Positions 27,790-45,276 of a DNA stretch of 64,000 nt are shown one piece after another (the stretch's first letter is position 1; every line of letters starts with the position of its first letter). The DNA lies in IMG/VR virus record IMGVR_UViG_3300020183_000007, positions 64,001-128,000 of that record; one strand, given 5' to 3'. The position numbers were made by a program, and so were the translations under genes. The notes below the pieces were generated by a model that saw nothing but the letters and a program-made list of their open reading frames with translations, was not told the DNA's origin and made no database searches. The DNA comes from a virus.

Positions 27790-27798
27790 TGATATAAT
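27790..27798 (+). promoter_or_regulatory. Extended -10 (TGnTATAAT) promoter for recA
   Basis: TGATATAAT 35 nt upstream of the recA ATG. Confidence 0.5.
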
Positions 27799-27833
27799 CT
27801 ATACATCATTAAGATGAAGATCGGTAGGATTTA

Positions 27834-28853: not shown

Positions 28854-28855
28854 CA

Positions 28856-29008: not shown

Positions 29009-29117
29009 GGCTACCTTACAGATTGCAACGTATATGAGAGTTTTTTTGTTGTTTGATGCTGTTCGTGATATTATCGATTAATTTTAGGTACTATATTCCG
29101 TAACTAAGGGTGGTGTT

Positions 29118-29408: not shown

Positions 29409-29410
29409 TT

Positions 29411-30871
29411 ATGGCTACGAATCCTAAGTTGGATGAGCTGAATAAGCTTGGTTTACAGTATTTTGATAACTGGAAAGACTATGCTGCTGCTACGGCTAAC
29501 GCTTCTCCTGGTCAGGTTATTGGTGGTATAAATAAAAAGGGTAAGCTTGTTTTTTATCAGGGTGGTATTGGTGAGATAAACATTAAACAGGCTAAAGTTG
29601 AGTTGACTTCTTTAAGAAATGCCAATGCTCCTTCACAAGCGCCTGTTGCTGCTGTTTCTCAAACTGTGGCTTCTCAGCCTGCTAATACTCCTGTGTTGCA
29701 GGGTACAATTACTCAAACGCAGCCTTCTAGTAGTGCTGCTGCTGCTGGTGTTCAACAAAATGTTATTGATCCTCAACAGGTGAATCCGTCGACTAAAACA
29801 ATCGATGATGCTTTAAAAAATCCGAAAAGTAAAAGTACAAAAAAGGACACTACTTTAAAAACTGGTAAAAGGACGTCTGCTTCTATTGATCGTAGTGCAG
29901 CTATCATCAAGCTTGCCAATAATCCTGATGCTGAACAGGAAATGATGAGTATCATTTCTCGATCTGTTGGAATGAGAAAAGGTGCATCTGGCTATAGTAA
30001 GATAGTCAAATCTGCTAAAGGTACTTTAGGTAAGCCTAGTCCTGGTCCAAAGTCTAAACAAGGATATATTGATGCTGTAACTAATAGGGATTTCTTTATA
30101 GAAGAAGGAAGAGATAATACGAGCTCTTTGTTGCGTGCAAGGATTCAAGAAGAGAATCCTAACATAAGTAAAACAAAGTTAAGAAGTTTGGTAGCAAAAA
30201 AAATGTCAACTTACAGCGATGAAGCTCTTTTCAATATTGGCGAAGAGATGAACAGAGACTTAATACGGAATTATTACGTAGACACATATGCATATGAGGA
30301 ATTTGAACGTTTGGCTTCAATGACTTCAGAACAACGTTTACAAGTTTTTCAAGGTCAAAGAAGCAGGAACGTTGGTGGAAAAAGAGTTCCTATCAACAAT
30401 ATCTCTGATAGACAGGTTTTAGATTTATCCGCAACATATTTGAAACAATACGAAAGATTAGAGCTTGGTGACAGCAGAATCGTCGGCAAACTAGCAAAAG
30501 CCGGAGAAAAATTACGAGGAGGTATCGCTATGGGTGATATAAGCTATCATCCAGGATACTCTGCCATAGAATCATCGTTAGATGAAGCCTACATGCGCAG
30601 AATGGCTAATAAAGCTGCTGGCGTAGCCAGCGCAGCTGCAGACGACTCCGCTATGGTTGCCGCACAAATCTCTTCAGCGTTATCATCATCTGGGAACATG
30701 CTAGAAGACTCTGCCCAAGCCATCAACAAAGTCACTAGAAAAAAAGCTATCTCAGCGAAAACACTAGAAAAAATCATATCCTCACACAGCCTATCAGCTG
30801 GACTAGCAGCCGGAGGAGCAGCTCTACTATACGGACTCAATAAAAAACGAGGAGAAGAACAAGTAGGATAA
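29411..30871 (+). CDS. Hypothetical protein with C-terminal hydrophobic anchor (putative internal virion protein)
   Basis: 486 aa; ends LSAGLAAGGAALLYGLNKKR. Confidence 0.6.
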   Translation: MATNPKLDELNKLGLQYFDNWKDYAAATANASPGQVIGGINKKGKLVFYQGGIGEINIKQAKVELTSLRNANAPSQAPVAAVSQTVASQPANTPVLQGTITQTQPSSSAAAAGVQQNVIDPQQVNPSTKTIDDALKNPKSKSTKKDTTLKTGKRTSASIDRSAAIIKLANNPDAEQEMMSIISRSVGMRKGASGYSKIVKSAKGTLGKPSPGPKSKQGYIDAVTNRDFFIEEGRDNTSSLLRARIQEENPNISKTKLRSLVAKKMSTYSDEALFNIGEEMNRDLIRNYYVDTYAYEEFERLASMTSEQRLQVFQGQRSRNVGGKRVPINNISDRQVLDLSATYLKQYERLELGDSRIVGKLAKAGEKLRGGIAMGDISYHPGYSAIESSLDEAYMRRMANKAAGVASAAADDSAMVAAQISSALSSSGNMLEDSAQAINKVTRKKAISAKTLEKIISSHSLSAGLAAGGAALLYGLNKKRGEEQVG

Positions 30872-30901
30872 AATATAGTCATTCGCCGGTAAAAAATTTT
30901 T

Positions 30902-30942
30902 AAGGGGTAGGAGTAACAGTAACGTTGCTCCTACCCCTTTTG
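30902..30942. terminator. Bidirectional terminator between convergent genes
   Basis: AAGGGGTAGGAGTAAC...GTTGCTCCTACCCCTTT. Confidence 0.75.
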
Positions 30943-30969
30943 TTGTATTTAGAAACAGTAAAGAAAAAC

Positions 30970-31188
30970 TCAGTAGTCGTAACCAGACTCCCAGCCCATT
31001 TCTTCGTACAATTCATTGCTGGATACATAGGAATTATACTGATCTAGAACAGCAAACTCTACATTAGCTATACCGCCAAACTGATTAATCCATTGGAAAC
31101 AGTCCGGACAACGTACACTTAGCCCAATTAGTTCTTCGCTAATAATAAACTCCGAACCACAGTGTGGGCAATCCATATATGAACTCAT
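30970..31188 (-). CDS. Zn-ribbon protein
   Basis: CPHC...CPDC, acidic tail. Confidence 0.6.
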   Translation of the reverse strand: MSSYMDCPHCGSEFIISEELIGLSVRCPDCFQWINQFGGIANVEFAVLDQYNSYVSSNELYEEMGWESGYDY

Positions 31189-31607
31189 ATTTTATCCTTT
31201 GCTTTGTTAGGCATTGAGTGAGTGATGTTTGCCGGCGTCAATAACCGGACATGTAGAAATATAGCCATCCACAGCATTGCTTGCAACACATATGCGAATA
31301 ATATCCAAAAAATTTCTTGCGGGCGACTTTTACGATCAGAAACAACACTGATTTATATAAGATTATATAAGTTTAATAAGGGATAATATCAGGAAAAATT
31401 TATGGGGGGGAGATAATGAGTACATGTTGTGGCTTCAGACTTTTAACGAGGCCACCCCCCCATGGGGTATGTGCTTGCTAGGAACGACAATGAGCGGTCG
31501 TCCACTCCCTACAGTGGTGCAGGTATCCCGCATAAAAGGACAGCTCCGATGAACACGTTACCATCGTAAAAGAAATGTGTAGCCATGTTAATGAAAGGAT
31601 CATCAAC

Positions 31608-31901
31608 ATGATAACATGCATCAACGATGTCATCGGCAAGTATGCCGTTGACATGAACGGAAACACCCTTCCCTATCACAAGGAGGTGACCGGACTTTTT
31701 GTCGCCCACACGGGCACTGAAGTCTGGATCAAGTCTCCGAGTGGGGACAGCTCGGACGTGCTCATCTTCGGGCATGTACACGGCAACACCGGGTGGTTCG
31801 CCCGGGAGTTCGGTGGTCGCATGATCACCGTCAGGAGCCAGCGCAAGTGGGACTACCAGAACCAAATGTGGTACTGGTACAACACAGTCCACGCTGCCTG
31901 A
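31608..31901 (+). CDS. Hypothetical protein (first gene of GC-rich island)
   Basis: GAAAGGA RBS before ATG 31608; GC3-rich codons. Confidence 0.6.
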   Translation: MITCINDVIGKYAVDMNGNTLPYHKEVTGLFVAHTGTEVWIKSPSGDSSDVLIFGHVHGNTGWFAREFGGRMITVRSQRKWDYQNQMWYWYNTVHAA

Positions 31902-32026
31902 CAAAGCACCTGGTAGGGCAGGTGCACAAAGAGTTGTTCCCCTGGGATCTTCGGATCCTGGGGGAACTTCTTTTTTGAGGATAGGCATCCAGCCATGTCC
32001 ACTGCACCAAAGAAAGGAGGTGTGCA

Positions 32027-32119
32027 ATGTTGCAGATTCCGATGTACATCATCGGGATCAGCGTCATCCTCTTTGCACAGGTCACGTTTTTCGTGGATCT
32101 GTTCAAGAAGAAGGACTGA
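32027..32119 (+). CDS. 30-aa membrane peptide
   Basis: AAGGAGG RBS; MLQIPMYIIGISVILFAQVTFFVDLFKKKD. Confidence 0.6.
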   Translation: MLQIPMYIIGISVILFAQVTFFVDLFKKKD

Positions 32120-32312
32120 TCTGAAACTGCCACGACACGGGTGGCCAAGCAGTAGTGACGCTTGGGAACAGAATAATCACTAAAAGAAATTGGTTCCTTC
32201 GGGAATCTTTTTCTTTGAGGATAGGCCATTCTCCTCATCTGGCTGCCGGAAGTTAGGCATAAGACCAGCGTCCCTTGTCAGGATGTAAGTGCACCCAGCG
32301 TGCCTAAAAGAC

Positions 32313-32348
32313 TACGTAATAATCACGTCCGGTACGTTAAGCCGAGAC
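32313..32348 (+). ncRNA. Leader hairpin/pseudoknot motif, copy 1 of 5 (others 33397-33430, 35025-35058, 40957-40994, 42054-42091)
   Basis: GTYCGG-TACGTTAAG-CCG(A)GAC hairpin with upstream ACGT(A) complementary to the loop; always 10-25 nt before a start codon. Confidence 0.6.
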
Positions 32349-32371
32349 ACTTTCAGATTCAGGAGGAATCA

Positions 32372-32677
32372 ATGGGAGTAAAACTTCCTAGGTGCATCCG
32401 TGCGCGTCGGATCGGGCATTGGAGCTATGGCTCCGACACCTTTTTCGACGCGAACGGGAACAAGGCGCCGGTGACCTGGACCTGCAACTGCGGGTCCAGG
32501 ATCACCCTGGAGGTATACGACTGCCAGACCGGCGAGTACACCGACACCCCCAAGGAACTGCTGCAGGCGTTCCTGGCAGAGCACACGGCTTGTGTGGCCA
32601 TGTGCTACAACTGCCGAAAGGTGGAGGTGGAGCGCCAGGGATACTGGTGCAACGAGTGCGAGGCCGAGCACTACTGA
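32372..32677 (+). CDS. Cys-rich (Zn-binding) hypothetical protein
   Basis: AGGAGG RBS before ATG 32372 (the longer track start overlaps the leader motif); CNC, CYNC, CNEC. Confidence 0.65.
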   Translation: MGVKLPRCIRARRIGHWSYGSDTFFDANGNKAPVTWTCNCGSRITLEVYDCQTGEYTDTPKELLQAFLAEHTACVAMCYNCRKVEVERQGYWCNECEAEHY

Positions 32678-32801
32678 CATCCAGGCTGATGAGCCCAGCC
32701 TGAAGAAAAGAGGAGTTCTCTCCTACGCATCCAGCGTAGGGGGAACTTCTTCTTTTGACAATAGACCTGCGAACAGCAAGTAACAGGTCGGAAAGGAAGC
32801 C

Positions 32802-33242
32802 ATGAACGTCAATGCCATGAACCTTATCACCAAATACACAGGAGCCATCTCCATTGTTTGGGATGGTGAAGCGATTACTCAGGTAACCCTGGGTATCGGT
32901 ACCAAGCACCAGAGGACGGTCTCCAGGTCGTACCTGGAGGACGGTCAAATCATCTTCTCACGGGAAGATGCCCCTTCCGGGACCATCTGGCCCTTGAGCA
33001 GGCAAGAGCTGGAGGAGATCGCCCTCATGGGTGGCGTCGTGATGCTCCATGCCGATGACCTGTATCGGCTCGTTGTCCTCCCTGAGTGGTGGACGGTGGA
33101 GTGCGAAATGGCCATTGAGGGTGAATGCCCTGAGTGGCCATTAGCAGAAGAAGAGTCCCCCAAGTCCCTTGGGGAAGTAATGCTTGAAATGATCCAGAGG
33201 ATCATTGAGGAGGCAGACGATCCAGATCAATGGGACAAGTAA
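32802..33242 (+). CDS. Hypothetical acidic protein
   Basis: GAAAGGA RBS; flanked by cassette motif and terminator. Confidence 0.7.
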   Translation: MNVNAMNLITKYTGAISIVWDGEAITQVTLGIGTKHQRTVSRSYLEDGQIIFSREDAPSGTIWPLSRQELEEIALMGGVVMLHADDLYRLVVLPEWWTVECEMAIEGECPEWPLAEEESPKSLGEVMLEMIQRIIEEADDPDQWDK

Positions 33243-33451
33243 TGCTGAAACCCCGGGGGTCGAAAGGTCCTCGGGGAATCTTTTTCTTTGAGGATAGGCC
33301 ATTCTCCTCTACGCAGAGCCTGAGCGTATAATAAATCATGGGTGACGCAGCAGGAGCTAAATGCCTGACAGGTTATCTTACCTTGACAAAAGAGAAACGT
33401 AATCATCATGTTCGGTACGTTAAGCCGGACAACAAATGATTCGGAGGAATC

Positions 33452-34027
33452 ATGAACGAGTTCTTGTTCAAGGTCTTCGTGGTCTTTCTGACCACGCAGA
33501 CCAACCTAGCACGGGCCCCCTGGGCCAAGTGGCTAGGCCACTGCTGGGGGGAGACCACCCAGCACATCGTATACTACTTCGTCACGGGCAAGCACATGTG
33601 CTGCCCCTGGCGGGAAGTCCCACCGGTCGCATGTGGGCATGCGCCCACCTGCGACGAGTATTACTACCAGGCGCTGGACCTGGAGGTGGCCATGGAGGCC
33701 GCTTTCAAGTCCGGTGCCCTAGAAGAGTACACCTACGACAGCCTGATGGCTGCTCTAAGTGACCAGTACCTGGTGCTGAAATGCGCCAAGTTCTGGTTGG
33801 ACAAACAGGGCACCATCGCCGGTTTTCCGGCCATGGCCGCCCTGAACGAATTTTTGGAGGATAACAACATGATCCTCCGGGATAATGGCGGACTGATGTC
33901 GGGTGCCCCCCAGCATCAGTACGCCAAGAAGACATTGGTCTTCTCCTCGGACAAGGCGTTCGAGGAGGAGGCCAAGCTGTGGCTGAAGATCCACAGCGCG
34001 CAACTTAGGGGCTTCAACAACAGCTGA
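33452..34027 (+). CDS. Hypothetical protein
   Basis: GGAGG RBS; 191 aa; cassette context. Confidence 0.7.
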   Translation: MNEFLFKVFVVFLTTQTNLARAPWAKWLGHCWGETTQHIVYYFVTGKHMCCPWREVPPVACGHAPTCDEYYYQALDLEVAMEAAFKSGALEEYTYDSLMAALSDQYLVLKCAKFWLDKQGTIAGFPAMAALNEFLEDNNMILRDNGGLMSGAPQHQYAKKTLVFSSDKAFEEEAKLWLKIHSAQLRGFNNS

Positions 34028-34147
34028 CCCAGAAAGGCTGATGAGCCCAGCCTGAAGAAGAGAGGAGTTCTCTCCTACGCAACCAGCGTAGGGGGAACTT
34101 CTTCTTTTGACAATAGACTTCTGAAACCAAAGTAAGAGGTCGGAAAG

Positions 34148-34474
34148 GTGACCATGTTGGTCAATCTCACCCCCCACCAGATCACTCTGGTGGATGACCT
34201 GGGTAACATTATCCAGGTTGTTGAGCCGGAGGCAACTTCGGCTCGGTGCTCCTCGGAGCGCCAATTCGCCTTCGAGGCGGACAGCATCCGGGTCAACCGG
34301 ACTATGTTCGGAGAGGTTTCAGGCCTCCCGGACGAGGTAAACGGGACGTGGTACATCGTGTCACGTATCGTTGCCGAAGCGTCGGGCCGGTCGGACCTGA
34401 TCATCCCGGATGAAACAGTTCGGAATGCCGAAGGACAGATTATCGGCTGCAAGTCGTTCGCGACTTTGGGCTGA
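34148..34474 (+). CDS. NLTPH-motif small protein (candidate Crn4-like ring nuclease)
   Basis: VNLTPH...LP...YIVSRIVA...RSDLIIP...VRNAEGQIIGCKSF family signature. Confidence 0.55.
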   Translation: MTMLVNLTPHQITLVDDLGNIIQVVEPEATSARCSSERQFAFEADSIRVNRTMFGEVSGLPDEVNGTWYIVSRIVAEASGRSDLIIPDETVRNAEGQIIGCKSFATLG

Positions 34475-34512
34475 TCTGATGTCAAACAACAATTCACCGA
34501 AAGGAGGTGAAC

Positions 34513-34785
34513 ATGAAGAAGCATCCAAAGCGGGTGTACGTCTTTAGGCGTGCGCTCGTTCTGGTCCTGGCAGTTTTCTTTGCTGCAGCGGCCTACGGAA
34601 TGTACGAAGAGCTTACGGGCCCTTCGTACGAGTGCGAGCAAGCACCCGTGGTCGTTGGGCAGGGAGACACTCTCTGGAGGATCGCTGAAAAGCGATGCGA
34701 CGGAGATTTGCTGGAGGTCCGGTACAAGCTGGTGAAGTCCTACGGGACTAATATCCGGCCTGGACAGGTCATTCAGCTGCCCTGA
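34513..34785 (+). CDS. Membrane-anchored LysM protein
   Basis: Basic N-terminus + TM helix, VVGQGDTLWRIAEK...IRPGQVIQLP. Confidence 0.85.
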   Translation: MKKHPKRVYVFRRALVLVLAVFFAAAAYGMYEELTGPSYECEQAPVVVGQGDTLWRIAEKRCDGDLLEVRYKLVKSYGTNIRPGQVIQLP

Positions 34786-34801
34786 GACCAGAGCCTACTG
34801 T

Positions 34802-34928
34802 GCACCTACAGACAACGATGATCTGTAGGGTGTAGCGGGGTTTTGCACCCTGGGAACAGAAGCGGGGGGGTCGGCAGTGGGCCGGCTCCCTGTTCTGTTT
34901 GAGGAAATCTCTTTTTTGAGGATAGACC
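34802..34928 (+). ncRNA. 127-nt structured element, copy 1 (copy 2 at 40079-40205)
   Basis: Three hairpins; differences between copies fall in loops or convert A-U to G-U. Confidence 0.55.
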
Positions 34929-35080
34929 ATTGTCCTTAGCGCAGAACCTGAGCGCTATATAAATCATGGGTGACGCAGCAGGAGCTAAATGCCTGACAGG
35001 TTATCTTACCTTGACAAAAGAGAAACGTAATCATTATGTTCGGTACGTTAAGCCGGACAACAAACGTTCACGGAGGAATC

Positions 35081-35347
35081 ATGAACGTAAACAAGAACAA
35101 GATCACCCTCGTGGTGACAGCAATCATCTGTGTGCTCCTCGTTCTGGAGCCCACCAGTGAGCTGACGGTGGGGATCATCTCCCTGCCGATCAAGGCCTTC
35201 TTCACGATCCTGGGCTTCGGCTTCGGCCTCGTGAACTGGCCCATGCTCACAGTCGTTGTGATTGGAGCGGGAATCGCCTTCGTGGCGAAAACCCGTACGG
35301 TCGATTGGACCGTCGTTAAGAGCTTCTTCCGCTCGGAAGAAAGCTGA
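35081..35347 (+). CDS. Small membrane protein
   Basis: GGAGG RBS; 2-3 hydrophobic helices. Confidence 0.7.
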   Translation: MNVNKNKITLVVTAIICVLLVLEPTSELTVGIISLPIKAFFTILGFGFGLVNWPMLTVVVIGAGIAFVAKTRTVDWTVVKSFFRSEES

Positions 35348-35480
35348 CTATACCTGGTGATGAGTCCACCAGATGAGCAATGGGATTGTTTTCCCCGGGG
35401 ATCGAAAGGTCCTCGGGGAAACTTTCTTTTTTACCAATAGGCCCCCGAACAACCGAAGGGGTCGGAAAGAGAGGAAGGTA

Positions 35481-35663
35481 ATGAACATCAAGGGCGTGGA
35501 GGTCCTCTCGTACGAGGAGTACGAGGGTATGCTCCATAAGGTGGTGACACGATACAAGGTCGTGGGCACGACCTTCGGGTTCAACCGCTTTCAGGCGGGC
35601 CCCTTCCAGACGAAGGGAGAGGCAGAGAAGTTCGCAGCTCTTCTGACTCTTCTGAGGGGCTGA
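35481..35663 (+). CDS. Hypothetical protein (60 aa)
   Basis: GAGGAAGG RBS before ATG 35481. Confidence 0.6.
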   Translation: MNIKGVEVLSYEEYEGMLHKVVTRYKVVGTTFGFNRFQAGPFQTKGEAEKFAALLTLLRG

Positions 35664-35825
35664 CGAACTTTGTGGGGCACCGTCTTACCCGGCGCATCTG
35701 CTTAGACGGGTCATAGGGCAAGGATAGTTTTCCCCCGGGGTCTTAACGGACCCTGGGGGAAACTTTCTTTTTTACCAATAGGCCCCCGAACAACCGAAGG
35801 GGTCGGAAAGAAAGGAGAAATCCGC

Positions 35826-36203
35826 ATGAAAGTTGTAACATGGTTGTCGTCCACGATGGACCCAACCAAGGGAGTAGCTCCCGGTAAGTGCGTATTCACC
35901 GGTGAGTACCCAGGGGTGTTTTGTGTCCCCTTCGTAGAAGATGGGACGCCTGGAAAGGCACTCAATGATTTCTGGCACTCACCCCGGTATGCCAGAGATC
36001 TTCAAGTGATCCTTGAAGTTCCAGTGGAAAATCTCTTCTTCCGGCTCATGGGCCAAGAGAAGCCACTTCCGATTTACAAGGACGGACGAGTGGCCATCAA
36101 TCTCATCATCAATAAGTGTTTTGATGATGATAATGCAATAATCATCAAGAACTTCGATCCTGCGTGGATCGTTTCTATCAGAAAGGAAGAAAACAATGGA
36201 TAA
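35826..36203 (+). CDS. Hypothetical protein
   Basis: AAGGAG RBS; overlaps the next gene. Confidence 0.65.
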   Translation: MKVVTWLSSTMDPTKGVAPGKCVFTGEYPGVFCVPFVEDGTPGKALNDFWHSPRYARDLQVILEVPVENLFFRLMGQEKPLPIYKDGRVAINLIINKCFDDDNAIIIKNFDPAWIVSIRKEENNG

Positions 36204-37680
36204 CTACTCAGAGGGATGGAAGGCCCTCAAGGAGTTTGAGCAGAAGTTCTGCTCTGTCATGGCCTCCGAGGTCGAAATGTCGATCCGGGAGGGAGATTCT
36301 GAGGTAGTTGGCTCAGAATTGGTTTACAACCACTCCTACATGCCCATCCCCCAATACAGGAACGGAAGGGTGAGGGCCAACTTTGAGATGGGTGATAAAC
36401 TTCACCTGGTCCACCAGAGGCTGGAAACGCCCGGAAAGGGCAGGGTCAAGTGGGCTCTGCGAAGCTTCCACAGTATCCTCGAATGCGAGGATGGGCGCTA
36501 CATGCCCAAGAGTCGGTACCTGAAGGAAGTCAAATTCGCAGTCAATCCAACAGAGGATGGCTACCGATTTCAGATCCTGAAGACACAGGGTGGCAAAACT
36601 CGCGTTTACTGGGGGTATAACACCATTCATTCAGGACTCCTGCAAGAATTTGTCCATATCTCACTGCGAACAGCGGCAACGAAACTCATTGGTCAATATA
36701 TGGATCCGCAAAGGATTCATGCAGTGTTGCAGTGGTTTTCCTACGAACAAACAAAGTATCCCGAGTACTTTGCTAGTGACAACCCTGCGAGTCGTCAATC
36801 GCAAGAATTGCAACTTGGCGGACCGGGATGGTCCCGTATCCTGACCGGTAAGACCGGCGCAAAGGACATCCTGAACGGGATCTATGACCCCAAGGGTATC
36901 AGAAGGATTCCTAAGAATGCCTTCGGTGGCGTCGGGGAAATCAGGACTTTGGACCGTTTAGCCAAAGCGGTTTTCATGACTCGTGCGCTGCGCAGTCTTG
37001 ATCCGCACACCTTTGGCGAAGTTAGTAGTGTATGGCCAGACAGACCGATAAATTATAAGTATGAGGGATCATTTGAGAAGGCCGACAAGATTGATTGGCT
37101 TGTCAATAAACTTCCGAAACTCATTTCTGTAAAGAACATTCAGGAATGTCAGACTCCATATACATACATGGAAGACACAGTCAGGATGCTCAAGCAAATG
37201 CCACGAACACTGCGTTCTGCATGTTTGACTGAGATCCGCAGAAATGCAGCTAGAGGCATTGAATGGGCACACGACTTTGTCGCAACTGAACATGCAAAAG
37301 TTGGGAAAGAGAACAAGGACATCAATGTCAGTGCACTCAGTAAGTTTGAGGGAACTGTCAATGATGACATTGCGTGTGTAGTTCCCAAGTGCACTCACGA
37401 TTTGGTTCAGTGGGGCGCTGAGTACAACATTTGCATTGGCTCATATGCAGATGAAGTTTACAATGGCAGTACTTACTGCATGGGGTTCCAGAATCCCCAG
37501 ACTAAGACCTTTTATGGTTTTGCACAGGTCAACCCGTGGGACGGACATCTTCTCCAGCTATTGGGTAAGCACAACAACCATCTTCCTGATGTGGAGAGGC
37601 TTGCAATTGAGCGTTACCTGGTAACGCTTGGTGTCAATGTTGATAATTACTGGGGCAAGCCCCTTGTTGCACTTAACTAA
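36196..37680 (+). CDS. PcfJ-like domain protein, paralog 1
   Basis: C-terminal DLVQWGAEYNICIGSY...G...FAQV...QLLGKHN motif. Confidence 0.65.
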   Translation: MDNYSEGWKALKEFEQKFCSVMASEVEMSIREGDSEVVGSELVYNHSYMPIPQYRNGRVRANFEMGDKLHLVHQRLETPGKGRVKWALRSFHSILECEDGRYMPKSRYLKEVKFAVNPTEDGYRFQILKTQGGKTRVYWGYNTIHSGLLQEFVHISLRTAATKLIGQYMDPQRIHAVLQWFSYEQTKYPEYFASDNPASRQSQELQLGGPGWSRILTGKTGAKDILNGIYDPKGIRRIPKNAFGGVGEIRTLDRLAKAVFMTRALRSLDPHTFGEVSSVWPDRPINYKYEGSFEKADKIDWLVNKLPKLISVKNIQECQTPYTYMEDTVRMLKQMPRTLRSACLTEIRRNAARGIEWAHDFVATEHAKVGKENKDINVSALSKFEGTVNDDIACVVPKCTHDLVQWGAEYNICIGSYADEVYNGSTYCMGFQNPQTKTFYGFAQVNPWDGHLLQLLGKHNNHLPDVERLAIERYLVTLGVNVDNYWGKPLVALN

Positions 37681-37688
37681 GTCTGGCA

Positions 37689-37740
37689 GCCCCTACCCCT
37701 TAACTGGGGAGGCATAGTGGTTCGATTCCACATAGGGGCA
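37689..37740 (+). ncRNA. Anticodon-arm-less tRNA-like element (52 nt)
   Basis: Acceptor GCCCCTA/TAGGGGC + A73, D-arm CCTT-AACTGGG-GAGG, T-arm GTGG-TTCGATT-CCAC; only 3-4 nt where the anticodon arm should be. Confidence 0.65.
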
Positions 37741-37781
37741 CTGTTCGCAATCCCGCGGACTATAACATGATTGGAGAAATC

Positions 37782-38117
37782 ATGAAGAAGAAAGTTGAGT
37801 GGTGCGGATGCATGGACGTCCGTTCACCGAAAGAAGGGTTCAAGGACATCTTCTCGAAAGAGTTGGTGGACGGGAAACCACGAGGTGAACTTTGGGAGCT
37901 GATGGAAGTGAAGAGTTGGGAAGAGTTCAAGGATGAACTCTCCGACATTTCCTGGGGAATTGGCCGAATCATTGGCGGATTCCGTGGCAAGGCGTACGTG
38001 CGTGTGCCTGGGGATCGAATTCACTACGAGAAGGTTGTGAACCGAATTGAGGATTATGGCTGCATCCGCAGCAAGAGGTTCTTGATTGACGGACACTGCC
38101 CGAACGAGGGTAAGTAA
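37782..38117 (+). CDS. Hypothetical protein
   Basis: GGAG RBS before ATG 37782. Confidence 0.6.
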   Translation: MKKKVEWCGCMDVRSPKEGFKDIFSKELVDGKPRGELWELMEVKSWEEFKDELSDISWGIGRIIGGFRGKAYVRVPGDRIHYEKVVNRIEDYGCIRSKRFLIDGHCPNEGK

Positions 38118-38294
38118 AGAAAGAAAGGTGGCCCCGGGGAATTCGCCTCGGGGCCTTTGACTGAAAGGAGAACAGTAAGACGAACTACCGTACTGATCAG
38201 AAAAAAGGGGTCTGTTCCCGGGGAGAAATCCCTGGGAACTTTCTTTTTTGAGGTTAGACCTCTGAAACCAAAGTAAGAGGTCGGAAAGGTCGTC

Positions 38295-39734
38295 ATGACC
38301 GATTTCTACTCCAAGGGCTGGAAGGCCCTCAAGCAGTTCGAGCAGCAGTTCTGCTCGATCCCTGAGCGTGATGCCCAAGACACCATACTATCAGCACCCT
38401 TTCAGACATACTATCGGGGCGATACCGATGGGTCGACATTGGTGCACAACACCTCGTACCTGCCCACACCAGGGCCTTATGGTGTCTGTATGTGGGAAAC
38501 CGGTGACAGGATACACCTGATCCACACGCGGCTCGACCTTCAGCCGGCTGGCAAGGTCAAGTGGGCGCTGCGAAGCTTCCACGGCATCTTGCAAATGGAT
38601 CCGACCATAGGGCGCTACATGCCCAAGAGTCGGTACCTGAAGGAAGTCAAATTCGCAGTCAATCCAACAGAGGATGGCTACCGCTTCCAGATTTTGAAGA
38701 CACAGGGTGGCAGAACCTGTGTCTATTGGGGATATGATCCGGAGAAGTTGATGCAAGAAATCGGCGATCCGGAGATGTGGAGAGCGGCGCGCAACGTCGT
38801 TTACAAGTATCTGATTCCGGATCAGATGTATAAAGTGTTGCAATGGTTTCGTTCGGAAAACCCCGTAGAGGAAACCGAACAATTGCGACTTGGTGGACCG
38901 GGATGGTCACGGATTTTGACTGGTAAGACCGGCGCAAAGGACATCCTCAACGGGGTCTATGACCCGAAGGGTGTCAGAAGGATTCCTAAGAACGCCTTTG
39001 GTGGTGTAGGGGAAATTCGAACCCTTAACGCTTTGGCAAAAGCGGTCTTCATAACTCGTGCGTGGCGCAGTCTTGATCCGCACACCTTTGGCGAAGTTAG
39101 CAATGCTTTGTCAAAGGATTTTCGTCTTGTCTATAATGGGTCATTTGAACAGGCTGACAAAATTGATTGGCTTGTCAGTAGAATTCCCAAACTGCCTATC
39201 GGTAGGGAGGAAAACTTTGAATCTATTGACCTTTTGTCCATTGAGGACATGATCACAATGCTCAAGCAAATGCCCCGAGCTTTGCGTTCTGCGTGTTTGG
39301 CTGAAATACGCAGAAGCGCAAATCGGGGTATGCAGTGGGCACACGATTACGTTGTCCTTGAGTTTAACAAACTGAAAACAGCCGACAAGGTAATCGAGCA
39401 GGATGAGCTCAGCCGGTTCGAGGGAACTGTCAACGATGACATGATTTGCGTGGTCCCGAAGTCCACCCATGATTTGGTTCAGTGGGGGACTGAGTACAAC
39501 ATCTGTATCGGTTCATACGCAGATCGCGTGTACCGTGGAAACACCTTGTGTATGGGGTTCCAGAACCCTCACACCAAGAGTTTCTACGGTTTTGCGGAGG
39601 TCAATCCGCAGAACAAGAAGCTTGTCCAACTGCTGGGCAAGTACAACCACAGTCTTGATAATCTGGACAAGCTTGCCATTGAGTGTTATCTAACCTCGAA
39701 GGGAGTTGGTGTTGATTTCTATCGGGGTAAATAA
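38295..39734 (+). CDS. PcfJ-like domain protein, paralog 2
   Basis: Colinear with 36196-37680 including identical peptide blocks (YMPKSRYLKEVKFAVNPTEDGYRFQILKTQGG). Confidence 0.65.
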   Translation: MTDFYSKGWKALKQFEQQFCSIPERDAQDTILSAPFQTYYRGDTDGSTLVHNTSYLPTPGPYGVCMWETGDRIHLIHTRLDLQPAGKVKWALRSFHGILQMDPTIGRYMPKSRYLKEVKFAVNPTEDGYRFQILKTQGGRTCVYWGYDPEKLMQEIGDPEMWRAARNVVYKYLIPDQMYKVLQWFRSENPVEETEQLRLGGPGWSRILTGKTGAKDILNGVYDPKGVRRIPKNAFGGVGEIRTLNALAKAVFITRAWRSLDPHTFGEVSNALSKDFRLVYNGSFEQADKIDWLVSRIPKLPIGREENFESIDLLSIEDMITMLKQMPRALRSACLAEIRRSANRGMQWAHDYVVLEFNKLKTADKVIEQDELSRFEGTVNDDMICVVPKSTHDLVQWGTEYNICIGSYADRVYRGNTLCMGFQNPHTKSFYGFAEVNPQNKKLVQLLGKYNHSLDNLDKLAIECYLTSKGVGVDFYRGK

Positions 39735-39837
39735 CAAGTTTTTCCCCGGGGATCGGCAGAAATGCTGGTCCTCGGGGAAACTTTCTTTATAGGCATCCAG
39801 CCATGTCCACTAAACCAAAGAAAGGAGGTGAACAAAC

Positions 39838-40062
39838 GTGTTCAACACACGAATCCCTCTTTCGAACGGATCGTACATCTCGTTGGCCCAAAACGAAATG
39901 TGCGTCCTCAGAGAGGAGTTCGTCCCCACTCTGGAGTGGGCGGGTGTCGAAACGCAGGATGATATCCTGCGGTTCGATAACCTGTCAACACTCCGGACGT
40001 TGTTGGATAAGGCGGAAGCCTGGAGTCTGAAGACTCCGGATCCGTCTTCCGACAACTCGTGA
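39838..40062 (+). CDS. Hypothetical protein
   Basis: AAGGAGG RBS, GTG start. Confidence 0.6.
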   Translation: MFNTRIPLSNGSYISLAQNEMCVLREEFVPTLEWAGVETQDDILRFDNLSTLRTLLDKAEAWSLKTPDPSSDNS

Positions 40063-40272
40063 CGACGAACGCAACTGCGCACCTGCAGACAACGATGATC
40101 TGTAGGGTGTGCCGGGGTTATCCACCCTGGGAACAGAAGCGGGGGGGTCGGCAGTGGGCCGGCTCCCTGTTCTGTTTGAGGAAATCTCTTTTTTGAGGAT
40201 AGACCGACCGGGTCTACCTACGGTCCCAGCACAACAGGATCTAACCAATCCGCTGGGAGAAAGGGAGGCATC

Positions 40273-40545
40273 ATGCAGAAGCTGCCCAAGCGAGTGTACG
40301 TCAAAAGGCGTATCCTCGTGGCTGCTCTCACGGTGTTCTTTCTGATGGCCGGATGTGGCATGATCAAGAAAGTGACGAGCCCCTCGTTCACTTGCCCGGA
40401 TCGCACCCACACGGTTCTTCAGGGGGAAAGTCTCTGGACCATTGCTGAAAAGCATTGCGACGGAGACCTGCTCGCTGTACGTTACCATCTGACACAGGCC
40501 TACGGGCCCGTGATTCAGCCCGGTGACGTCATCGAGCTGCCTTGA
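40273..40545 (+). CDS. Membrane-anchored LysM protein, paralog of 34513-34785
   Basis: KRVYVKRR + TM + HTVLQGESLWTIAEK...IQPGDVIELP. Confidence 0.85.
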   Translation: MQKLPKRVYVKRRILVAALTVFFLMAGCGMIKKVTSPSFTCPDRTHTVLQGESLWTIAEKHCDGDLLAVRYHLTQAYGPVIQPGDVIELP

Positions 40546-40757
40546 CGGCAAGTCGGCTCACTGAACCAGCAGTAATCTGGGAAGTCGCAACACACGACTA
40601 AAGATAATAACTCATATGAAGTTGGCATTGGTTACTTGCCTTATATAAGTATGAGTGAATTATTATGTGTTTTATTTGTGGGGAAACCCCGGGACTCGTA
40701 TCGATCCGAAGGGCACACCGATGGGTGTGTAATTCGTGCGAGTTCTGGGGTTTTCTC

Positions 40758-41019
40758 TTTGAGGATAGACCGCATCCTCAAGGTGACCGTGCTTTAGTCA
40801 CACGCCCCTCGTTAGGGGAAGGGCCGTAGGGCCAAGACATCGCACAACTACCGACCCACAACCATGTGAGTGGGACCTAATGGGGAACTGATGGGAAAAC
40901 TGAGCCACATATTCGCTCAGCCAGAAGGAAACCAGAAGGTGAGAAAATCATGAGAAACGTGGAATCAGCCCTGTCCGGTACGTTAAGCCGAGACACCAAA
41001 GGAGGAGGTCCGCATGGAC
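40758..41019 (+). repeat. 262-bp direct repeat (second copy 41855-42116): structured 5' leader
   Basis: Copies identical except one A/G; run from the TAGAC motif to the ATGGAC start. Confidence 0.9.
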
Positions 41020-41343
41020 CTGATCATAAAATTCGTCACCTACGTGGTGGCGGGTAAGTACAACGACCTGGTGGGTTTCGGCCCCCAGATCGTCGTCAAC
41101 GGAAAGCCGATCACGCTCGAGGCGTGGGTCCCCCGCAACAAGAAGGCTCGCAAGGGCTCCGAAGTCACGGGAACTCCCACCATCGAGGTTGAGGAGGGCA
41201 CTCAAATCACCAAGTCCTACACAAAGGACGGGGTGGAGGTGCTCCTGCCGGTCTGGAAGTTGCGGGTTGTGGTAAGCGGGGACTACGAGTTCTCGCAGCC
41301 GAAAACCGTGTCCCTCCAGGATTTCTTCAGGGACAACGTCTGA
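41014..41343 (+). CDS. Hypothetical protein (cassette payload A)
   Basis: GGAGG RBS; ends FFRDNV. Confidence 0.7.
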   Translation: MDLIIKFVTYVVAGKYNDLVGFGPQIVVNGKPITLEAWVPRNKKARKGSEVTGTPTIEVEEGTQITKSYTKDGVEVLLPVWKLRVVVSGDYEFSQPKTVSLQDFFRDNV

Positions 41344-41434
41344 CACCAATTCCGACGGTAAGCGGTCAACCGTCGGACAAGGAGGAGCCCCCTATCAAGG
41401 GGGTTTTCTCTTTGAGGATAGACCATTGGGGTCA
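41323..41434 (+). repeat. ~112-bp direct repeat (second copy 42453-42565): ORF tail + terminator + next motif
   Basis: Near-identical including the last codons FFRDN. Confidence 0.85.
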
Positions 41435-41459
41435 ATCTACAACAGAAAGGACAAGGGTG

Positions 41460-41810
41460 ATGATGTGTAATCACTTTTTAATGCTGCAGATGATGCAGCA
41501 GGCGGTGGAGGTTCTTCGTGAAAGGAAGAGTCCTCCAAAGAAGTGTGTTTCCCCAACCACCGGTAAGTTGATGGTGGAGTGGGGCATCTGGCGTAAGTTC
41601 TACGCCAAGATGGGCGTTTCTTCAGTAGGAAAGCCTTACATCATGATCTCGTTCCCGAAGCCTGTAACTAGGCACGAGGATGGGCATGAATACGGCCACG
41701 ATTACATCATGTGGCTGAATCCAAAGCAAGGGTCCATGACCTGCCCGAATTGCAGGAAAAAGTTGATTGACAGCAAGCTCGTTAATGAGCTAAGTGAGGT
41801 TGTTCAATAG
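41460..41810 (+). CDS. Hypothetical protein with CPNC
   Basis: GAAAGGA RBS; cassette context. Confidence 0.65.
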   Translation: MMCNHFLMLQMMQQAVEVLRERKSPPKKCVSPTTGKLMVEWGIWRKFYAKMGVSSVGKPYIMISFPKPVTRHEDGHEYGHDYIMWLNPKQGSMTCPNCRKKLIDSKLVNELSEVVQ

Positions 41811-42110
41811 AGGTTTTCCCCGGGGATCGAAAGGTCCTCGGGGAAACTTTCTTTTTTGAGGATAGACCGCATCCTCAAGGTGACCGTGCTTTAGTCACAC
41901 GCCCCTCGTTAGGGGAAGGGCCGTAGGGCCAAGACATCGCACAACTACCGACCCACAACCATGTGAGTGGGACCTAATGGGGAACTGATGGGAAAACTGA
42001 GCCACATATTCGCTCAGCCAGAAGGAAACCAGAAGGTGAGAAAATCATGGGAAACGTGGAATCAGCCCTGTCCGGTACGTTAAGCCGAGACACCAAAGGA
42101 GGAGGTCCGC

Positions 42111-42473
42111 ATGGACTACATCCACACCCTCATGGACATCTGGCGGGCGATCTGCTGGTCCATCCGCTTCGGCGGAGAAGGTCAGCAGAAACTCGACAAG
42201 AAGGGGCGGGAGTTCACCTCCTATTCCTTCGTCACCGAGGGCAACAGGGGTGTCCAGCCCAAGTCCGTGGTCGTGTACACGGGCAAGAAGGGGAACATCA
42301 CCGTGATGGCTAACATCAGCGCCCTGCGCAATGATGGCCAGCGGTACCCCAGGTCTGTCAAGTTCCTTCTCAAGAACTTGAACGAGGAGAAGTTCTTCCT
42401 CGTATGCGGTAAGACCCGCATGTACGACCACTACAAAGTGGATTATCCGGAGTTCTTCAGGGACAACGCCTGA
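42111..42473 (+). CDS. Hypothetical protein (cassette payload B)
   Basis: Same leader as payload A; ends FFRDNA; interior unrelated to payload A. Confidence 0.7.
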   Translation: MDYIHTLMDIWRAICWSIRFGGEGQQKLDKKGREFTSYSFVTEGNRGVQPKSVVVYTGKKGNITVMANISALRNDGQRYPRSVKFLLKNLNEEKFFLVCGKTRMYDHYKVDYPEFFRDNA

Positions 42474-42587
42474 TCCACAATTTCGACGGTAAGCGGTCAA
42501 CCGTCGGACAAGGAGGAGCCCCCTATCAAGGGGGTTTTCTCTTTGAGGATAGACCATTGGGGTCAGTCCAAAACAGAAAGGAAAGTC

Positions 42588-42782
42588 ATGGCAAAGAAAA
42601 TCATGAAGCTGGGCGAAAACGCCGGAGAGTGCGTGATCGATCAAAAAGATCGGTACACGGTTCTCACCTTCGATCAGAAGGAAGCAGCCGACAAGTTCGC
42701 CAAGAGCAAGGGCGTTCAGGTTCAGACGAAGATCGTCGGCGCAGCGAAGGTTCGTTCCTTCGTCGTCATCGTCAAGAGCTGA
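42588..42782 (+). CDS. Small basic protein
   Basis: GAAAGGA RBS before ATG 42588. Confidence 0.65.
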   Translation: MAKKIMKLGENAGECVIDQKDRYTVLTFDQKEAADKFAKSKGVQVQTKIVGAAKVRSFVVIVKS

Positions 42783-42881
42783 TCAGAAAAAGGGTCTGTT
42801 CCCGGGGAGAAATCCCTGGGAACTTCCTTTTTTGAGGATAGGCTACTGGGGCTAGTCCAAAAAGAAAGGTAAGGTTATGTC

Positions 42882-43418
42882 ATGGATAAAATGAAGAAAT
42901 TCTTCACAATCGTCGGAACTGGGTCTCGCAGCCTGGTGGAAGACGAAGAAAAGTTCAACAAGGTGCTTGCACACCTCACTGAACTTCTTGGCAAGGCAAA
43001 AGCCAAGCATGGAGAGAACCTTCTGGTCATCTCTGGCATGGCTGAGGGTTTCGATGAAGCCCTTGCCAAGGCTGCAATGGCAAACAGCGTTCAGCTGCTG
43101 GCAGCTATCCCCAATCGGGGGTACAGCAAGTATTACTGGAAGGATCACAGTATGACTGGTTTCGACCGGTACTCCTCTTTCCAGGAGCTGGCAAGGTATG
43201 CCAATGAAACAGGTGGGGTTGTTTACACCTGTGGATGCATCAAGGATCAACCCACAAAGTGTGGACACTGGGATGGGCGGATCTACAATTTCAAGCGAAA
43301 TGAATGGATGCTTGAGCGTGCCGACATTGTCTGGGTTTACAACCCGACGAGCAAGGGGACTGCTCACGCATACGGACTGGCTCGCAAAGCTGGTATTCGC
43401 ACCCACATCATTCAGTAA
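42882..43418 (+). CDS. SLOG superfamily (YspA-like) protein
   Basis: IVGTGSR, VISGMAEGFDEALAKAA, RNEWMLERADIVWVY...SKGTAH. Confidence 0.75.
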   Translation: MDKMKKFFTIVGTGSRSLVEDEEKFNKVLAHLTELLGKAKAKHGENLLVISGMAEGFDEALAKAAMANSVQLLAAIPNRGYSKYYWKDHSMTGFDRYSSFQELARYANETGGVVYTCGCIKDQPTKCGHWDGRIYNFKRNEWMLERADIVWVYNPTSKGTAHAYGLARKAGIRTHIIQ

Positions 43419-43552
43419 AGGAGGACAAATGGTCGTCCCCGGGGATCGAAAGGTCCTCGGGGAAACTTTTCGTCTTTTGAAAGAGATAGTCCCAGAAATA
43501 TTAATTAATACCATAGTCCTTGAAACAAAAGTAAAGGATAGAAAGGAGAGTC

Positions 43553-43759
43553 ATGGCTTACAACTATGACAATCGCAATTGCAATAAGTGTGGTGAGTTT
43601 CACTACAAAGGTGAACTAAGGTACCACGGGTTCATACCCGGCAAGGGAGACTATTTCACCTGCAAGAAATGTGATGAAGTAAAAGCTGCCATCAAGAAGA
43701 ATGTGAAAATCAAGAAGGAACGAGAGGCCTTGAAGGCTTCTCAGCCTACATTGTTCTGA
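43553..43759 (+). CDS. Small Zn-ribbon protein
   Basis: CNKC...CKKC; AAGGAG RBS. Confidence 0.6.
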   Translation: MAYNYDNRNCNKCGEFHYKGELRYHGFIPGKGDYFTCKKCDEVKAAIKKNVKIKKEREALKASQPTLF

Positions 43760-44353: not shown

Positions 44354-44528
44354 GAGGCACAAGAGCAGTCGGGGACCCTTCGGGGTTCCCGGCTGTCTCA
44401 GCCTCAAAAAATACCATGTAGTTCCTTCAGTTCTAGCAGGGTCGTTGAATACGCGAGGTTTCGTTGAATACGCGAGGTTTCAGAAAGTTCTAAAAACTCA
44501 GTAGACCTACAAACGCTGGGAGGCGATC

Positions 44529-44842: not shown

Positions 44843-44945
44843 TCTCCCCCTTGCTGAGAGTTCCTCGGTATACCTTCGGGTGTATCGGGGAACTCTCCGC
44901 GTAAAAAAGCTCTAAAAACCCACTAGACTCATAAGGAGTACTGCA

Positions 44946-45266
44946 ATGACAACTTTCATTTGGACGTGCATAGCGTTTGCGCTTGGTTTCTTAAGCTACA
45001 TAGGATATTGCCAAGTCCGACATATTGTTTCAGCGCGACTCAACTACGGCAAGCCCGTGTTGCTTGACGGCGAAAAGATTGGTTCAGTCATTTCGCTCCG
45101 TCACGACGGTTGCAAACGATACGTATTTGTGGATTATGATTATTGCTTGAATACTGATGTGCTTTATTACACCGCAGACGATGCCACAAATGCAATCAAG
45201 TGTGCGTATATCGCAATCATAAACAAGCGAAACCGAACAGCAACAAAACTCCACCACGCCATCTGA
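44946..45266 (+). CDS. Hypothetical membrane-anchored protein
   Basis: AAGGAG RBS; N-terminal TM helix. Confidence 0.65.
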   Translation: MTTFIWTCIAFALGFLSYIGYCQVRHIVSARLNYGKPVLLDGEKIGSVISLRHDGCKRYVFVDYDYCLNTDVLYYTADDATNAIKCAYIAIINKRNRTATKLHHAI

Positions 45267-45276
45267 TTCCAAACTC

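Follow-up and report, generated by a model that had tools for sequence, protein, structure and literature searches.

The window analyzed here is a DNA stretch of 64,000 nucleotides, corresponding to bases 64001-128000 of a 179,608-bp single virus record of IMG/VR (IMGVR_UViG_3300020183_000007) that originated in lake water and whose completeness is estimated at 85%. Our subject is an island within that window, at ~31.6-43.5 kb and with a looser tail to ~46 kb, in which small genes are separated by copies of one composite junction, and which is, as far as the sequence can tell, the hyperplastic and probably the earliest-expressed region of a ~180-kb lake phage. To judge from its predicted genes the record is that of a large tailed phage: its minus strand has, as far as ~27 kb, genes with PHROG matches to portal, tail-fibre, and virion proteins, and a PHROG helicase match lies further along on the plus strand. 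The genome has ~36% GC and the segment of the window at 31.5-46 kb has 50-54%; moreover, the GC fraction at third codon positions (GC3) is 0.66 in the island vs 0.29 elsewhere, the first and second positions (GC1, GC2) being the same inside and outside, and this GC3 shift recurs in the relatives. At least 20 lake-water DNA runs of 2018 contain 96-97% of the sampled words of the island.

Upon alignment on a TAG triplet, 17 junctions were found between 31936 and 43492, all on the plus strand and all co-oriented with the genes. The order of parts is a GC-rich hairpin, a T-run, a GAGG-A-TAG-R-CC block, usually a short hairpin that starts from the G of TAG, a Shine-Dalgarno sequence (SD), and an ATG some 44 nt on. 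The hairpin plus T-run precedes the block at 17/17 junctions, with stems of 5-18 bp and at a fixed spacing; the 3' arm usually ends in GGGGAA(A)C, followed by a T-rich tract ending in TTT or TTTTTT. A GC-rich stem-loop that runs directly into a U-tract, in the orientation of the gene, has the layout of an intrinsic terminator, and we treat these hairpins as putative terminators. The tetramer that follows is the variable part of the block—GAGG in 11 of the 17 junctions, GACA, ACCA, GAGT, and others in the rest—after which A-TAG, a purine, and a C are invariant throughout and a second C is present in 13, the fuller consensus being (GGGGAA)C-TTYC-TTTTTT-GAGG-A-TAG-R-C-C. The junctions are the following, handles such as L017 standing for the loci under comparison.

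J1, 31936-31987 (+): hairpin, T-run, and GAGGATAGGC; T of TAG at 31982; 27.1 bits.
J2, 32192-32227 (+): short hairpin, T-run, and GAGGATAGGCC; T of TAG at 32222; left breakpoint of a 2.7-kb indel versus L017.
J3, 32719-32767 (+): hairpin, T-run, and GACAATAGACC; T of TAG at 32762; 24.1 bits.
J4, 33251-33300 (+): T of TAG at 33295; 29.4 bits.
J5, 34071-34119 (+): GACAATAGACT; T of TAG at 34114; 21.0 bits.
J6, 34865-34928 (+): tandem half-motif TTTGAGGAAATC, then the full motif; T of TAG at 34923; right breakpoint of the 2.7-kb indel.
J7, 35390-35443 (+): ACCAATAGGCC; T of TAG at 35438; left breakpoint of a 4.75-kb indel versus L032/L040.
J8, 35729-35784 (+): ACCAATAGGCC; T of TAG at 35779.
J9, 38214-38260 (+): GAGGTTAGACC; T of TAG at 38255; 27.5 bits.
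J10, 39741-39795 (+): 18-bp hairpin and shortened motif TTTA-TAGGC; T of TAG at 39790.
J11, 40142-40205 (+): tandem half-motif; T of TAG at 40200; right breakpoint of the 4.75-kb indel.
J12, 40680-40771 (+): long branched hairpin (-50.6 kcal/mol, z -7.0), T-run, and motif; T of TAG at 40766.
J13, 41389-41424 (+): T of TAG at 41419; 28.9 bits.
J14, 41815-41868 (+): the highest matrix score, 31.0 bits; T of TAG at 41863.
J15, 42520-42555 (+): T of TAG at 42550.
J16, 42798-42844 (+): T of TAG at 42839; 27.4 bits.
J17, 43436-43492 (+): hairpin and degenerate motif GAAAGAGATAGTCC; T of TAG at 43487; the series ends here.

This array is real and far beyond chance. When both strands of the 179,608 bp were scanned with a weight matrix spanning positions -15 to +5 relative to TAG, 15 sites scored at least 21 bits, all of them on the plus strand and within 31982-42839; the next best site genome-wide reached 17.0 bits, and composition-preserving block shuffles gave a mean of 15.5 and a maximum of 19.6. 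Terminator-like sites, for their part, numbered 43 vs 15.5 +/- 3.0 in shuffles, being thus about three times commoner. The six repeat pairs quoted in the first-pass annotation are all real, as established by a repeat search and, for one of them, by direct reading: 32714 and 34067 (family D10, 131 nt, 88%), 33290 and 34918 (D7, 162 nt, 90%), 35390 and 35728 (D6, 99 nt, 82%), 34113 and 38254 (D12, 64 nt, 84%), 40758 and 41855 (D1, 269 nt, 99%), and, by eye, 31981 and 39789, a leader of ~40 nt in which two positions differ. The half-motif TTTGAGGAAATC stands in tandem before the full motif at 34892-34910 and 40169-40187 (+), in both copies of one terminator family; it looks like the scar of an unequal exchange within the junction.

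The stretch carries 21 open reading frames (ORFs; G02-G22), and G01 lies just upstream, the start codons having been chosen by SD. Fourteen units hold one gene each, and two are multi-gene units (G06+G07 and G10+G11+G12). Lengths are given below in amino acids (aa).

G01, 31608-31901 (+): 97 aa; the first GC3-rich gene (0.77), before J1.
G02, 32027-32119 (+): 30-aa hydrophobic peptide.
G03, 32372-32677 (+): 101-aa Cys-rich ORFan.
G04, 32802-33242 (+): 146 aa.
G05, 33452-34027 (+): 191-aa ORFan.
G06, 34154-34474 (+): 106 aa; phrog_30542, function unknown; first of a two-gene unit.
G07, 34513-34785 (+): 90-aa LysM protein with a hydrophobic N-terminal helix.
G08, 35081-35347 (+): 88-aa membrane protein of family c1, in 8/9 related loci compared (not in L004).
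G09, 35481-35663 (+): 60 aa; follows a different leader in L097 and run X3.
G10, 35826-36203 (+): 125 aa; 70% identical homolog in L004.
G11, 36196-37680 (+): 494-aa PcfJ-like protein (PF14284).
G12, 37782-38117 (+): 111 aa; the best-conserved payload, 64-78% in L001, L003, and L004.
G13, 38295-39734 (+): 479-aa PcfJ-like paralog.
G14, 39838-40062 (+): 74 aa, GTG start.
G15, 40273-40545 (+): 90-aa LysM paralog.
G16, 40665-40829 (+): 54-aa zinc-ribbon-like ORF, doubtful; overlaps the hairpin and motif of J12.
G17, 41014-41343 (+): 109 aa.
G18, 41460-41810 (+): 116 aa.
G19, 42111-42473 (+): 120 aa.
G20, 42588-42782 (+): 64 aa.
G21, 42882-43418 (+): 178-aa SLOG/DprA-like protein.
G22, 43553-43759 (+): 68-aa zinc-ribbon-like protein behind J17.

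Payloads with a named family are thus the two PcfJ-like proteins (G11, G13), the two LysM proteins (G07, G15), and the SLOG/DprA-like G21; G06 matches two PHROGs, both of unknown function, and the remaining payloads matched no named family in Pfam, PHROGs, or Atlas. The anti-defence or host-takeover roles that the first-pass annotation suggested for the payloads are putative. The exact G11 protein is encoded by 21 contigs. The free-standing G21 has its L001 counterpart inside a 1909-aa ORF (L001:11440-17169), at about residues 458-595; this ORF joins by single linkage the giant ORFs of 785-1470 aa at the island end in L003, L013, and L015. The first-pass annotation had spoken of some 16 self-contained single-gene expression cassettes, each bracketed by a TTTT-N5-TAGRC junction: the array stands and that formula is a fair shorthand, but the junctions number 17 and the genes of the two multi-gene units share one rather than having their own; as for self-containment, the hairpin-junction-gene layout is there, and the promoter part of it we infer from the sequence.

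The related loci were gathered by three routes. An alignment was needed for the first, a single PcfJ protein query having returned nothing from IMG/VR, and the PcfJ homolog profile yielded the IMG/VR loci L001-L005. The exact junction 18-mer retrieved six IMG/VR contigs, with 2-3 copies each, plus 91 metagenome stretches, from among which ~27 loci were kept by the criterion of an upstream hairpin, while ~40 of the 91 were discarded as chance 18-mer matches in unrelated DNA. Finally, the 13-mer TTTGAGKATAGRC was found in 4-7 copies, clustered and on one strand, in each of five further phage records, the reversed control giving 0. The island occupies the same slot in all the relatives: an AAA protease and a 339-aa protein constitute the left flank (69-85% identity in the relatives), and a 339-aa protein the right (48% identity in L003/L002). 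Inside the slot most payloads are unique to one phage; only G12 (64-78%), PcfJ (27-36%), G10, LysM, G21, and the membrane protein family recur. At the DNA level, likeness to L001 within the island is limited to the junctions (82-91% over 50-60 nt), G12, and short PcfJ stretches, a conserved flank gene being 77% identical. The complete 202-kb distant relative (L003, genome G001) shares this architecture, its block having diverged to TTTCTCTTTATGG[G/C]TAG; the exact hits (6/6) to that form all fall inside the GC-rich island of L003 itself.

A non-coding element conserved in four phages (31352-31468) borders the island on the left, where the structural and the island genes diverge; it has an invariant GGAAAAATTTAT followed by TTAAC-N4-CCCACCC, and in L003 the first junction motif comes directly after it, with no obvious GC hairpin by eye. 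This element could be a first promoter or an entry signal. A second GC-rich patch of the genome, at 162-168 kb (L006; 43-50% GC), is unrelated to the cassette island because it holds large minus-strand ORFs (580 and 733 aa) and no cassettes or hairpin or motif junctions.

The comparison with these relatives indicates that the units are reassorted at the junctions. L017, L024, and L082 are colinear with the present phage (84% identity) over 25971-32235 and then resume at 34903, so that the phage has an extra 2.7 kb, G03-G07, with a directly repeated copy of the junction at either end; a three-way alignment places the switch of the L017 type inside TTTGAGGATAG/RCCATT. L032 and L040 join 35432 to 40188, and 4.75 kb are absent there. 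The homolog of G04 follows G08 in L017 and precedes it here, and the unrelated proteins G17 and G19 are enclosed by a shared 269-nt leader (99%) and a shared tail of ~105 nt (96%), both extending over a few codons of the ORFs. By eye, the loose ends at 32755 and 35478 look like junction-leader combinations of L097; furthermore, in three of four lake runs a minority contig form skips 32372-32679 (joint 32371->32680), which is almost exactly the G03 ORF, and no circle junctions were seen in the Logan contigs of those runs. Among 90 non-redundant junctions, crude clustering gave 16 terminator and 15 leader families in 41 combinations, serving 47 payload families of which 28 are singletons, with a median payload of 90 aa.

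On these counts the parts do recur in different combinations, both within the genome and across the relatives, as the first-pass annotation had proposed; nor is gene content or order fixed among the related phages, since payloads vary, flanks are conserved, and breakpoints fall at the repeats. The image of a recombination-shuffled library is to be retained as far as the shuffling goes but not as a free-for-all, for a backbone order persists in the relatives (membrane protein c1, LysM, G12-PcfJ, SLOG gene), with variable cassettes interspersed. The lack of an integrase was likewise borne out: no match to a tyrosine or serine recombinase (PF00589, PF00239) was found in the 180-kb record, itself ~85% complete, whereas the controls were positive. 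That result bears on the notion that a site-specific recombinase, encoded elsewhere or by the host, acts on the junctions as on integron-like attC sites or similar ones, which notion draws on the integron-like look of repeated imperfect hairpins between single genes and on a very weak Rfam match to an attI/aminoglycoside leader (E 0.41). The hairpins, however, fall into at least 16 sequence families, and the crossovers occur anywhere in the shared block and even inside ORF ends, as in G17/G19 and as in homologous exchange; we regard site-specific recombination as extremely improbable. Since the junctions are direct repeats common to related phages at 80-95% identity, we favor homologous exchange: a 25-60-nt junction would provide portable homology, at which general homologous recombination could delete, duplicate, move, and exchange units with no site-specific recombinase.

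Since the junction arrays were found again in independent assemblies, we rejected an assembly artefact as the cause of the architecture, though not for the exact cassette order of this contig. The assemblies of the closest relatives (genomes G005 and G006; L016 and L017) stop inside the island, one at its contig start and the other at its contig end, which fits an assembly broken by repeats or by strain variation.

Taking these observations together, we hold with moderate confidence that the island consists of 17 head-to-tail units whose junctions combine terminator and promoter, are read by a phage-encoded polymerase, and are shuffled by homologous recombination in an early region. Each unit would end in a GC-rich hairpin plus U-run resembling a terminator; the adjoining T6-GAGG-A-TAG-R-CC would be a promoter, for the phage polymerase and not for the sigma-70 RNA polymerase; and the RNA would start at or near the G of TAG, to continue with a short 5' hairpin, a strong SD, and a small ORF. 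We favor this assignment of the block because it points the same way as every gene and keeps a narrowly constrained distance to the start codons (median 44 nt from TAG over the 90 junctions), because it diverges between lineages while the layout of hairpin and T-run is kept, and because the first copy in L003 follows the boundary element and not a terminator hairpin.

The same block might instead belong with what precedes it, the hairpin, U-run, and GAGGATAGRCC together forming a specialized terminator of the phage polymerase with the promoters elsewhere. The fixed spacing of hairpin and block would suit that idea, as would the conserved motif at seven early terminators of phage P23-45 (PMC10770324). 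Against it stand motifs devoid of an upstream hairpin (L003:4648 and, at L001:11336, the latter of a tandem pair), hairpins devoid of the motif (38128-38150, 44365-44395, and 44845-44890, by eye), the motif-to-start distance, which would be needless in a pure terminator, and the circumstance that no other promoter-like repeat is available for the 17 units; we therefore rate a terminator-only role as quite improbable.

If the block is a promoter, it could still be one for the host enzyme. The T-run would then be an UP element and TTGAGG, TTGACA, or TTGCCA the -35 hexamer: the TT plus variable tetramer does resemble TTGACA, perfectly so in J3 and J5, and sigma-70-like sites are slightly enriched in the region (19 vs 11.6 +/- 3.3). 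Nevertheless, the block is not sigma-70-like because it carries no information beyond +5 and so no -10 element; over the 90 junctions the information at +16 to +21 does not exceed 0.33 bit, and no conserved -10 stands at the right distance. The invariant ATAGRC would fall within the spacer, which is not conserved in sigma-70 promoters, and the phage, by a fold match, has a polymerase of its own. That the junctions are host sigma-70 early promoters consequently appears to us very unlikely. A sigma-70 region-2 domain (PF04542) had no match in the genome; the T7-type RNA polymerase (RNAP) model (PF00940) had none either, which blank says nothing because that model also failed in every control genome.

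With respect to the 5' end of the RNA, 58/90 junctions have the G of TAG as the first base of a stem of 4 bp or more, vs 9.3 +/- 2.7 when the downstream sequence was shuffled and vs 12-33 junctions for stems at neighboring offsets; at position +3 the pairs are A-T in 28, G-C in 12, and G-T in 18. This hairpin fits an RNA whose 5' end lies at or near the G of TAG and would be protected by the terminal hairpin. Such an end could also be produced by cleavage, were the island transcribed as one long early RNA from promoters at the left boundary only, with each junction as a processing module cut at or near AUAG/RCC, the first hairpin shielding the 3' end upstream of the cut and the second the 5' end that the nuclease leaves. 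RNase III sites stand in this manner between the early genes of T7. The hairpins on both sides of the conserved block, the AT-rich boundary element of the four phages (31352-31468), which could hold the single promoter, and the nearby Pistol ribozyme described below, which would show RNA cleavage to be in use, all speak for processing; but a strong GC hairpin that passes directly into a U-run marks termination and not a processing site, the first motif of L003 stands at the island start with no upstream gene to process, and the motif changes along with the phage lineage, as expected of a polymerase-specific signal. We know, moreover, of no host RNase that recognizes the junction sequence, and on balance consider processing unlikely.

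A candidate for the enzyme that would read the promoters is encoded within the window but outside the island, in an 860-aa gene at 53958-56540. Its AlphaFold model (pLDDT 85.5, pTM 0.83, from a 24-sequence alignment) matched, in Foldseek, QDE-1 (E 1e-9), RDR2, and the Thermus-phage non-virion RNAPs P74 gp62 and P32 gp64 (E 7e-4 to 1e-3), and weakly the crAss-like virion RNAP, so that a QDE-1-like two-barrel single-chain RNA polymerase fold is shown at the level of the model; phmmer against all Protein Data Bank (PDB) chain sequences gave nothing for this protein. Neither it, as protein, nor the region, as DNA, matched any GenBank phage, whence the phage has no known cultured relative or host. 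A six-frame translation of the genome contains the signature GG-x-D-x-DD followed after 15-35 residues by R-x-P-x3-GE at exactly two places, vs none in 50 shuffles; its carriers are the 860-aa protein and a 1691-aa tail-module protein (genome 44181-49256, minus strand), and both families have it without variation. In L003 and L013 the island ends in a unit that encodes a polymerase paralog of 785-788 aa, right after a junction (L003:12396-14759; L013:15435 onward), with the signature HGGPDEDD ... RNPNDFGE and 23% identity to the 860-aa protein over 275 residues; that paralog is absent from the present phage and its closest relative. As to which enzyme reads the motif, the more economical guess is one that is present at time zero.

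The timing itself is suggested by codon usage. The phage encodes tRNAs for AGA, UUA, AAA, ACA, AUA, AAY, AGY, and Met, and the shares of the corresponding codons within their families are lower in the island than elsewhere: 0.07 vs 0.50 for AGA, 0.01 vs 0.31 for UUA, 0.06 vs 0.34 for AUA, 0.18 vs 0.39 for ACA, and 0.20 vs 0.68 for AAA. Because the island genes avoid the phage-tRNA codons, they would be translated early, from the tRNA pool of a higher-GC host and before the phage tRNAs accumulate. A more specific proposal, which we advance only tentatively and judge somewhat doubtful, is that a polymerase encoded in the tape-measure slot and delivered with the virion reads the terminator-fused T6-GAGG-ATAGRCC promoters, the whole forming a clade-wide, self-shuffling library with host-like codons, translated before the phage tRNAs.

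Several points weigh against the interpretation thus assembled. GC-biased gene conversion in a recombination hot spot could be the cause of the GC3 shift, and the intergenic DNA of the island also has 50% GC. The 860-aa enzyme is unlikely to be present at time zero because its gene is AT-rich in codon usage, is not part of the island, and is not preceded by the motif. For the 1691-aa protein a polymerase fold was not confirmed: its model has a pLDDT of 69, Foldseek returned nothing below E 0.07, VIA-align gave only helical-bundle matches, and hhalign against the 860-aa family a probability of 0.6%. That a polymerase of the two-barrel type terminates at a hairpin plus U-run is putative. The 5' stem takes in the T and A of TAG in 33/90 junctions, a misfit to a start exactly at the G, and the 45-nt leaders fold no more stably than shuffles (mean z -0.39). 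Among the sequencing runs containing the island words there was no RNA run. Lastly, the Logan contigs from the four lake DNA runs break at every repeat and offer no check on cassette order, the order of this assembly not being re-checkable because repeats of up to 269 nt at 99% identity break short-read contigs.

Some further elements lie in the leaders. The 15-mer CGGTACGTTAAGCCG starts at 32330, 33413, 35041, 40976, and 42073 (+), in five long leaders that otherwise differ and 20-30 nt ahead of their SD, and appears conserved as nucleic acid because it is read in different frames; around its first copy the following part was delimited.

D14, 32327-32350 (+): leader hairpin part with a 6-bp stem and a conserved 9-nt loop TACGTTAAG (UACGUUAAG).

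The relatives have CAG...CTG in this stem, which amounts to one compensatory pair. The hairpin is a candidate operator for a translational regulator; as a supported structure the form GTYCRG-loop-CYGRAC was rejected, with the one compensatory pair in a single lineage and a shuffle control that was not significant. Long leaders at 33338-33439, 34966-35160, 40950-41057, and 42047-42313 (+) contain upstream ORFs with a weak SD that run into or over the main start codon, and these may couple or attenuate translation.

Between the G11 stop and the G12 start, where other units have a junction, there is a tRNA-like element (37689-37740, +) with the T-arm GGTTCGATTCC; ARAGORN made no call on it and Rfam gave only a noise match on the opposite strand, and the segment 37719-37789 of the window, over its 3' end, is 85% identical to L004. 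Past the island proper, the next two units are preceded by another promoter-like repeat, TCTAAAAAC-N-CA-N-TAGAC, at 44489-44508 and 44911-44930 (+), with a looser third copy at 45821; only its TAGAC end is in common with the main motif. The Pistol self-cleaving ribozyme mentioned above is a full-length RF02679 match at 45273-45340 of the window (+; 48 bits vs a gathering threshold of 34.5, E 3e-6) that starts 7 nt after the stop of a 106-aa gene (44946-45266) and opens an ORF-poor, hairpin-rich stretch to ~45812.

Were the proposed reading correct, the junction would supply a candidate promoter, with 17 copies here and 90 non-redundant ones in the relatives, for a very divergent two-barrel RNAP family, and a short template would make the activity and specificity of the polymerase directly testable. 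The codon split matched to the tRNA set would, in turn, be a simple sequence-only marker for early regions, and for the accessory-gene libraries within them, in uncultured large phages. The 47 payload families constitute a defined set for screens of host takeover or counter-defence.

Four known systems invite comparison. With integron arrays the island shares small single genes of unknown function, hairpin-forming repeats between them, and a content that varies among relatives. The array is nonetheless not an integron, because no integrase was found and the exchange looks homologous rather than site-specific; besides, the units appear to have their own promoter and terminator instead of being promoterless. 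The hairpins are of at least 16 unrelated families, each followed by a U-run, and Rfam gave nothing significant. Phage morons, as Juhala and colleagues reportedly described them in 2000, carry promoter, gene, and terminator as one autonomous unit that has inserted between genes of the phage; in that autonomy and location the present units are alike, whereas morons are scattered single insertions with host-type promoters and not a tandem array on one junction.

In Thermus phage P23-45, for its part, the virion RNAP gp96, fused to the tape measure, and the non-virion RNAP gp64 (Chaban et al. 2024, PMC10770324) use distinct promoter motifs, the virion polymerase transcribes the gene of the second one, and a conserved 26-nt motif marks the sites where the virion RNAP terminates (PMC10770324). 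Both there and here we find a single-chain polymerase, QDE-1-like according to the model, together with a giant tail-module protein having the same active-site-like signature, and a motif other than sigma-70 confined to one block of small genes, among which some relatives have a polymerase paralog. The present case differs in that no sequence similarity to the P23-45 enzymes was detected, the fold match being weak, in that the motif is another, and in that the units have their own junctions, which drive the shuffling.

The closest parallel is provided by the promoter-early stem-loops (PeSLs) of T4-type phages, composite motifs of a sigma-70 promoter and a stem-loop in hyperplastic regions that mediate modular shuffling and form encapsidated mini-circles between neighboring motifs; their promoters match the sigma-70 consensus in the -35, the -10, and an AT-rich upstream part, and the place of the stem-loop varies (Arbiol et al. 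2010, PMC2839356; Comeau et al. 2014, PMC4122927). The shuffling principle is therefore already known (PMC2839356, PMC4122927). In common with PeSLs, the junctions are small terminator/promoter-like composites, repeated in a hyperplastic region and mostly upstream of ORFans, in which indels and replacements between related phages have their ends with no site-specific recombinase involved: all the motif copies of at least 21 bits lie in one 11-kb island with variable payloads, and the joints 32235/34903 and 35432/40188 fall within the motif. The differences are that here there is no -10, that T6-GAGG-ATAGRCC is conserved, with ATAGRC standing where the sigma-70 spacer would be, that the hairpin always precedes the block at a fixed spacing, that the phage encodes, by fold prediction, one or more two-barrel RNA polymerases, and that the region is set apart by its GC3 of 0.66 vs 0.29. 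The locus thus works like a PeSL array but lacks the sigma-70 promoter. Should a phage polymerase indeed read the junctions, the PeSL principle would not be tied to T4-type phages or host promoters but would work in an unrelated phage clade as well; and if that polymerase is, in addition, delivered with the virion, this clade of uncultured 180-200-kb freshwater phages would offer the first PeSL-like system on a virion-delivered polymerase other than sigma-70, with an unusually clean split between early and late codons.

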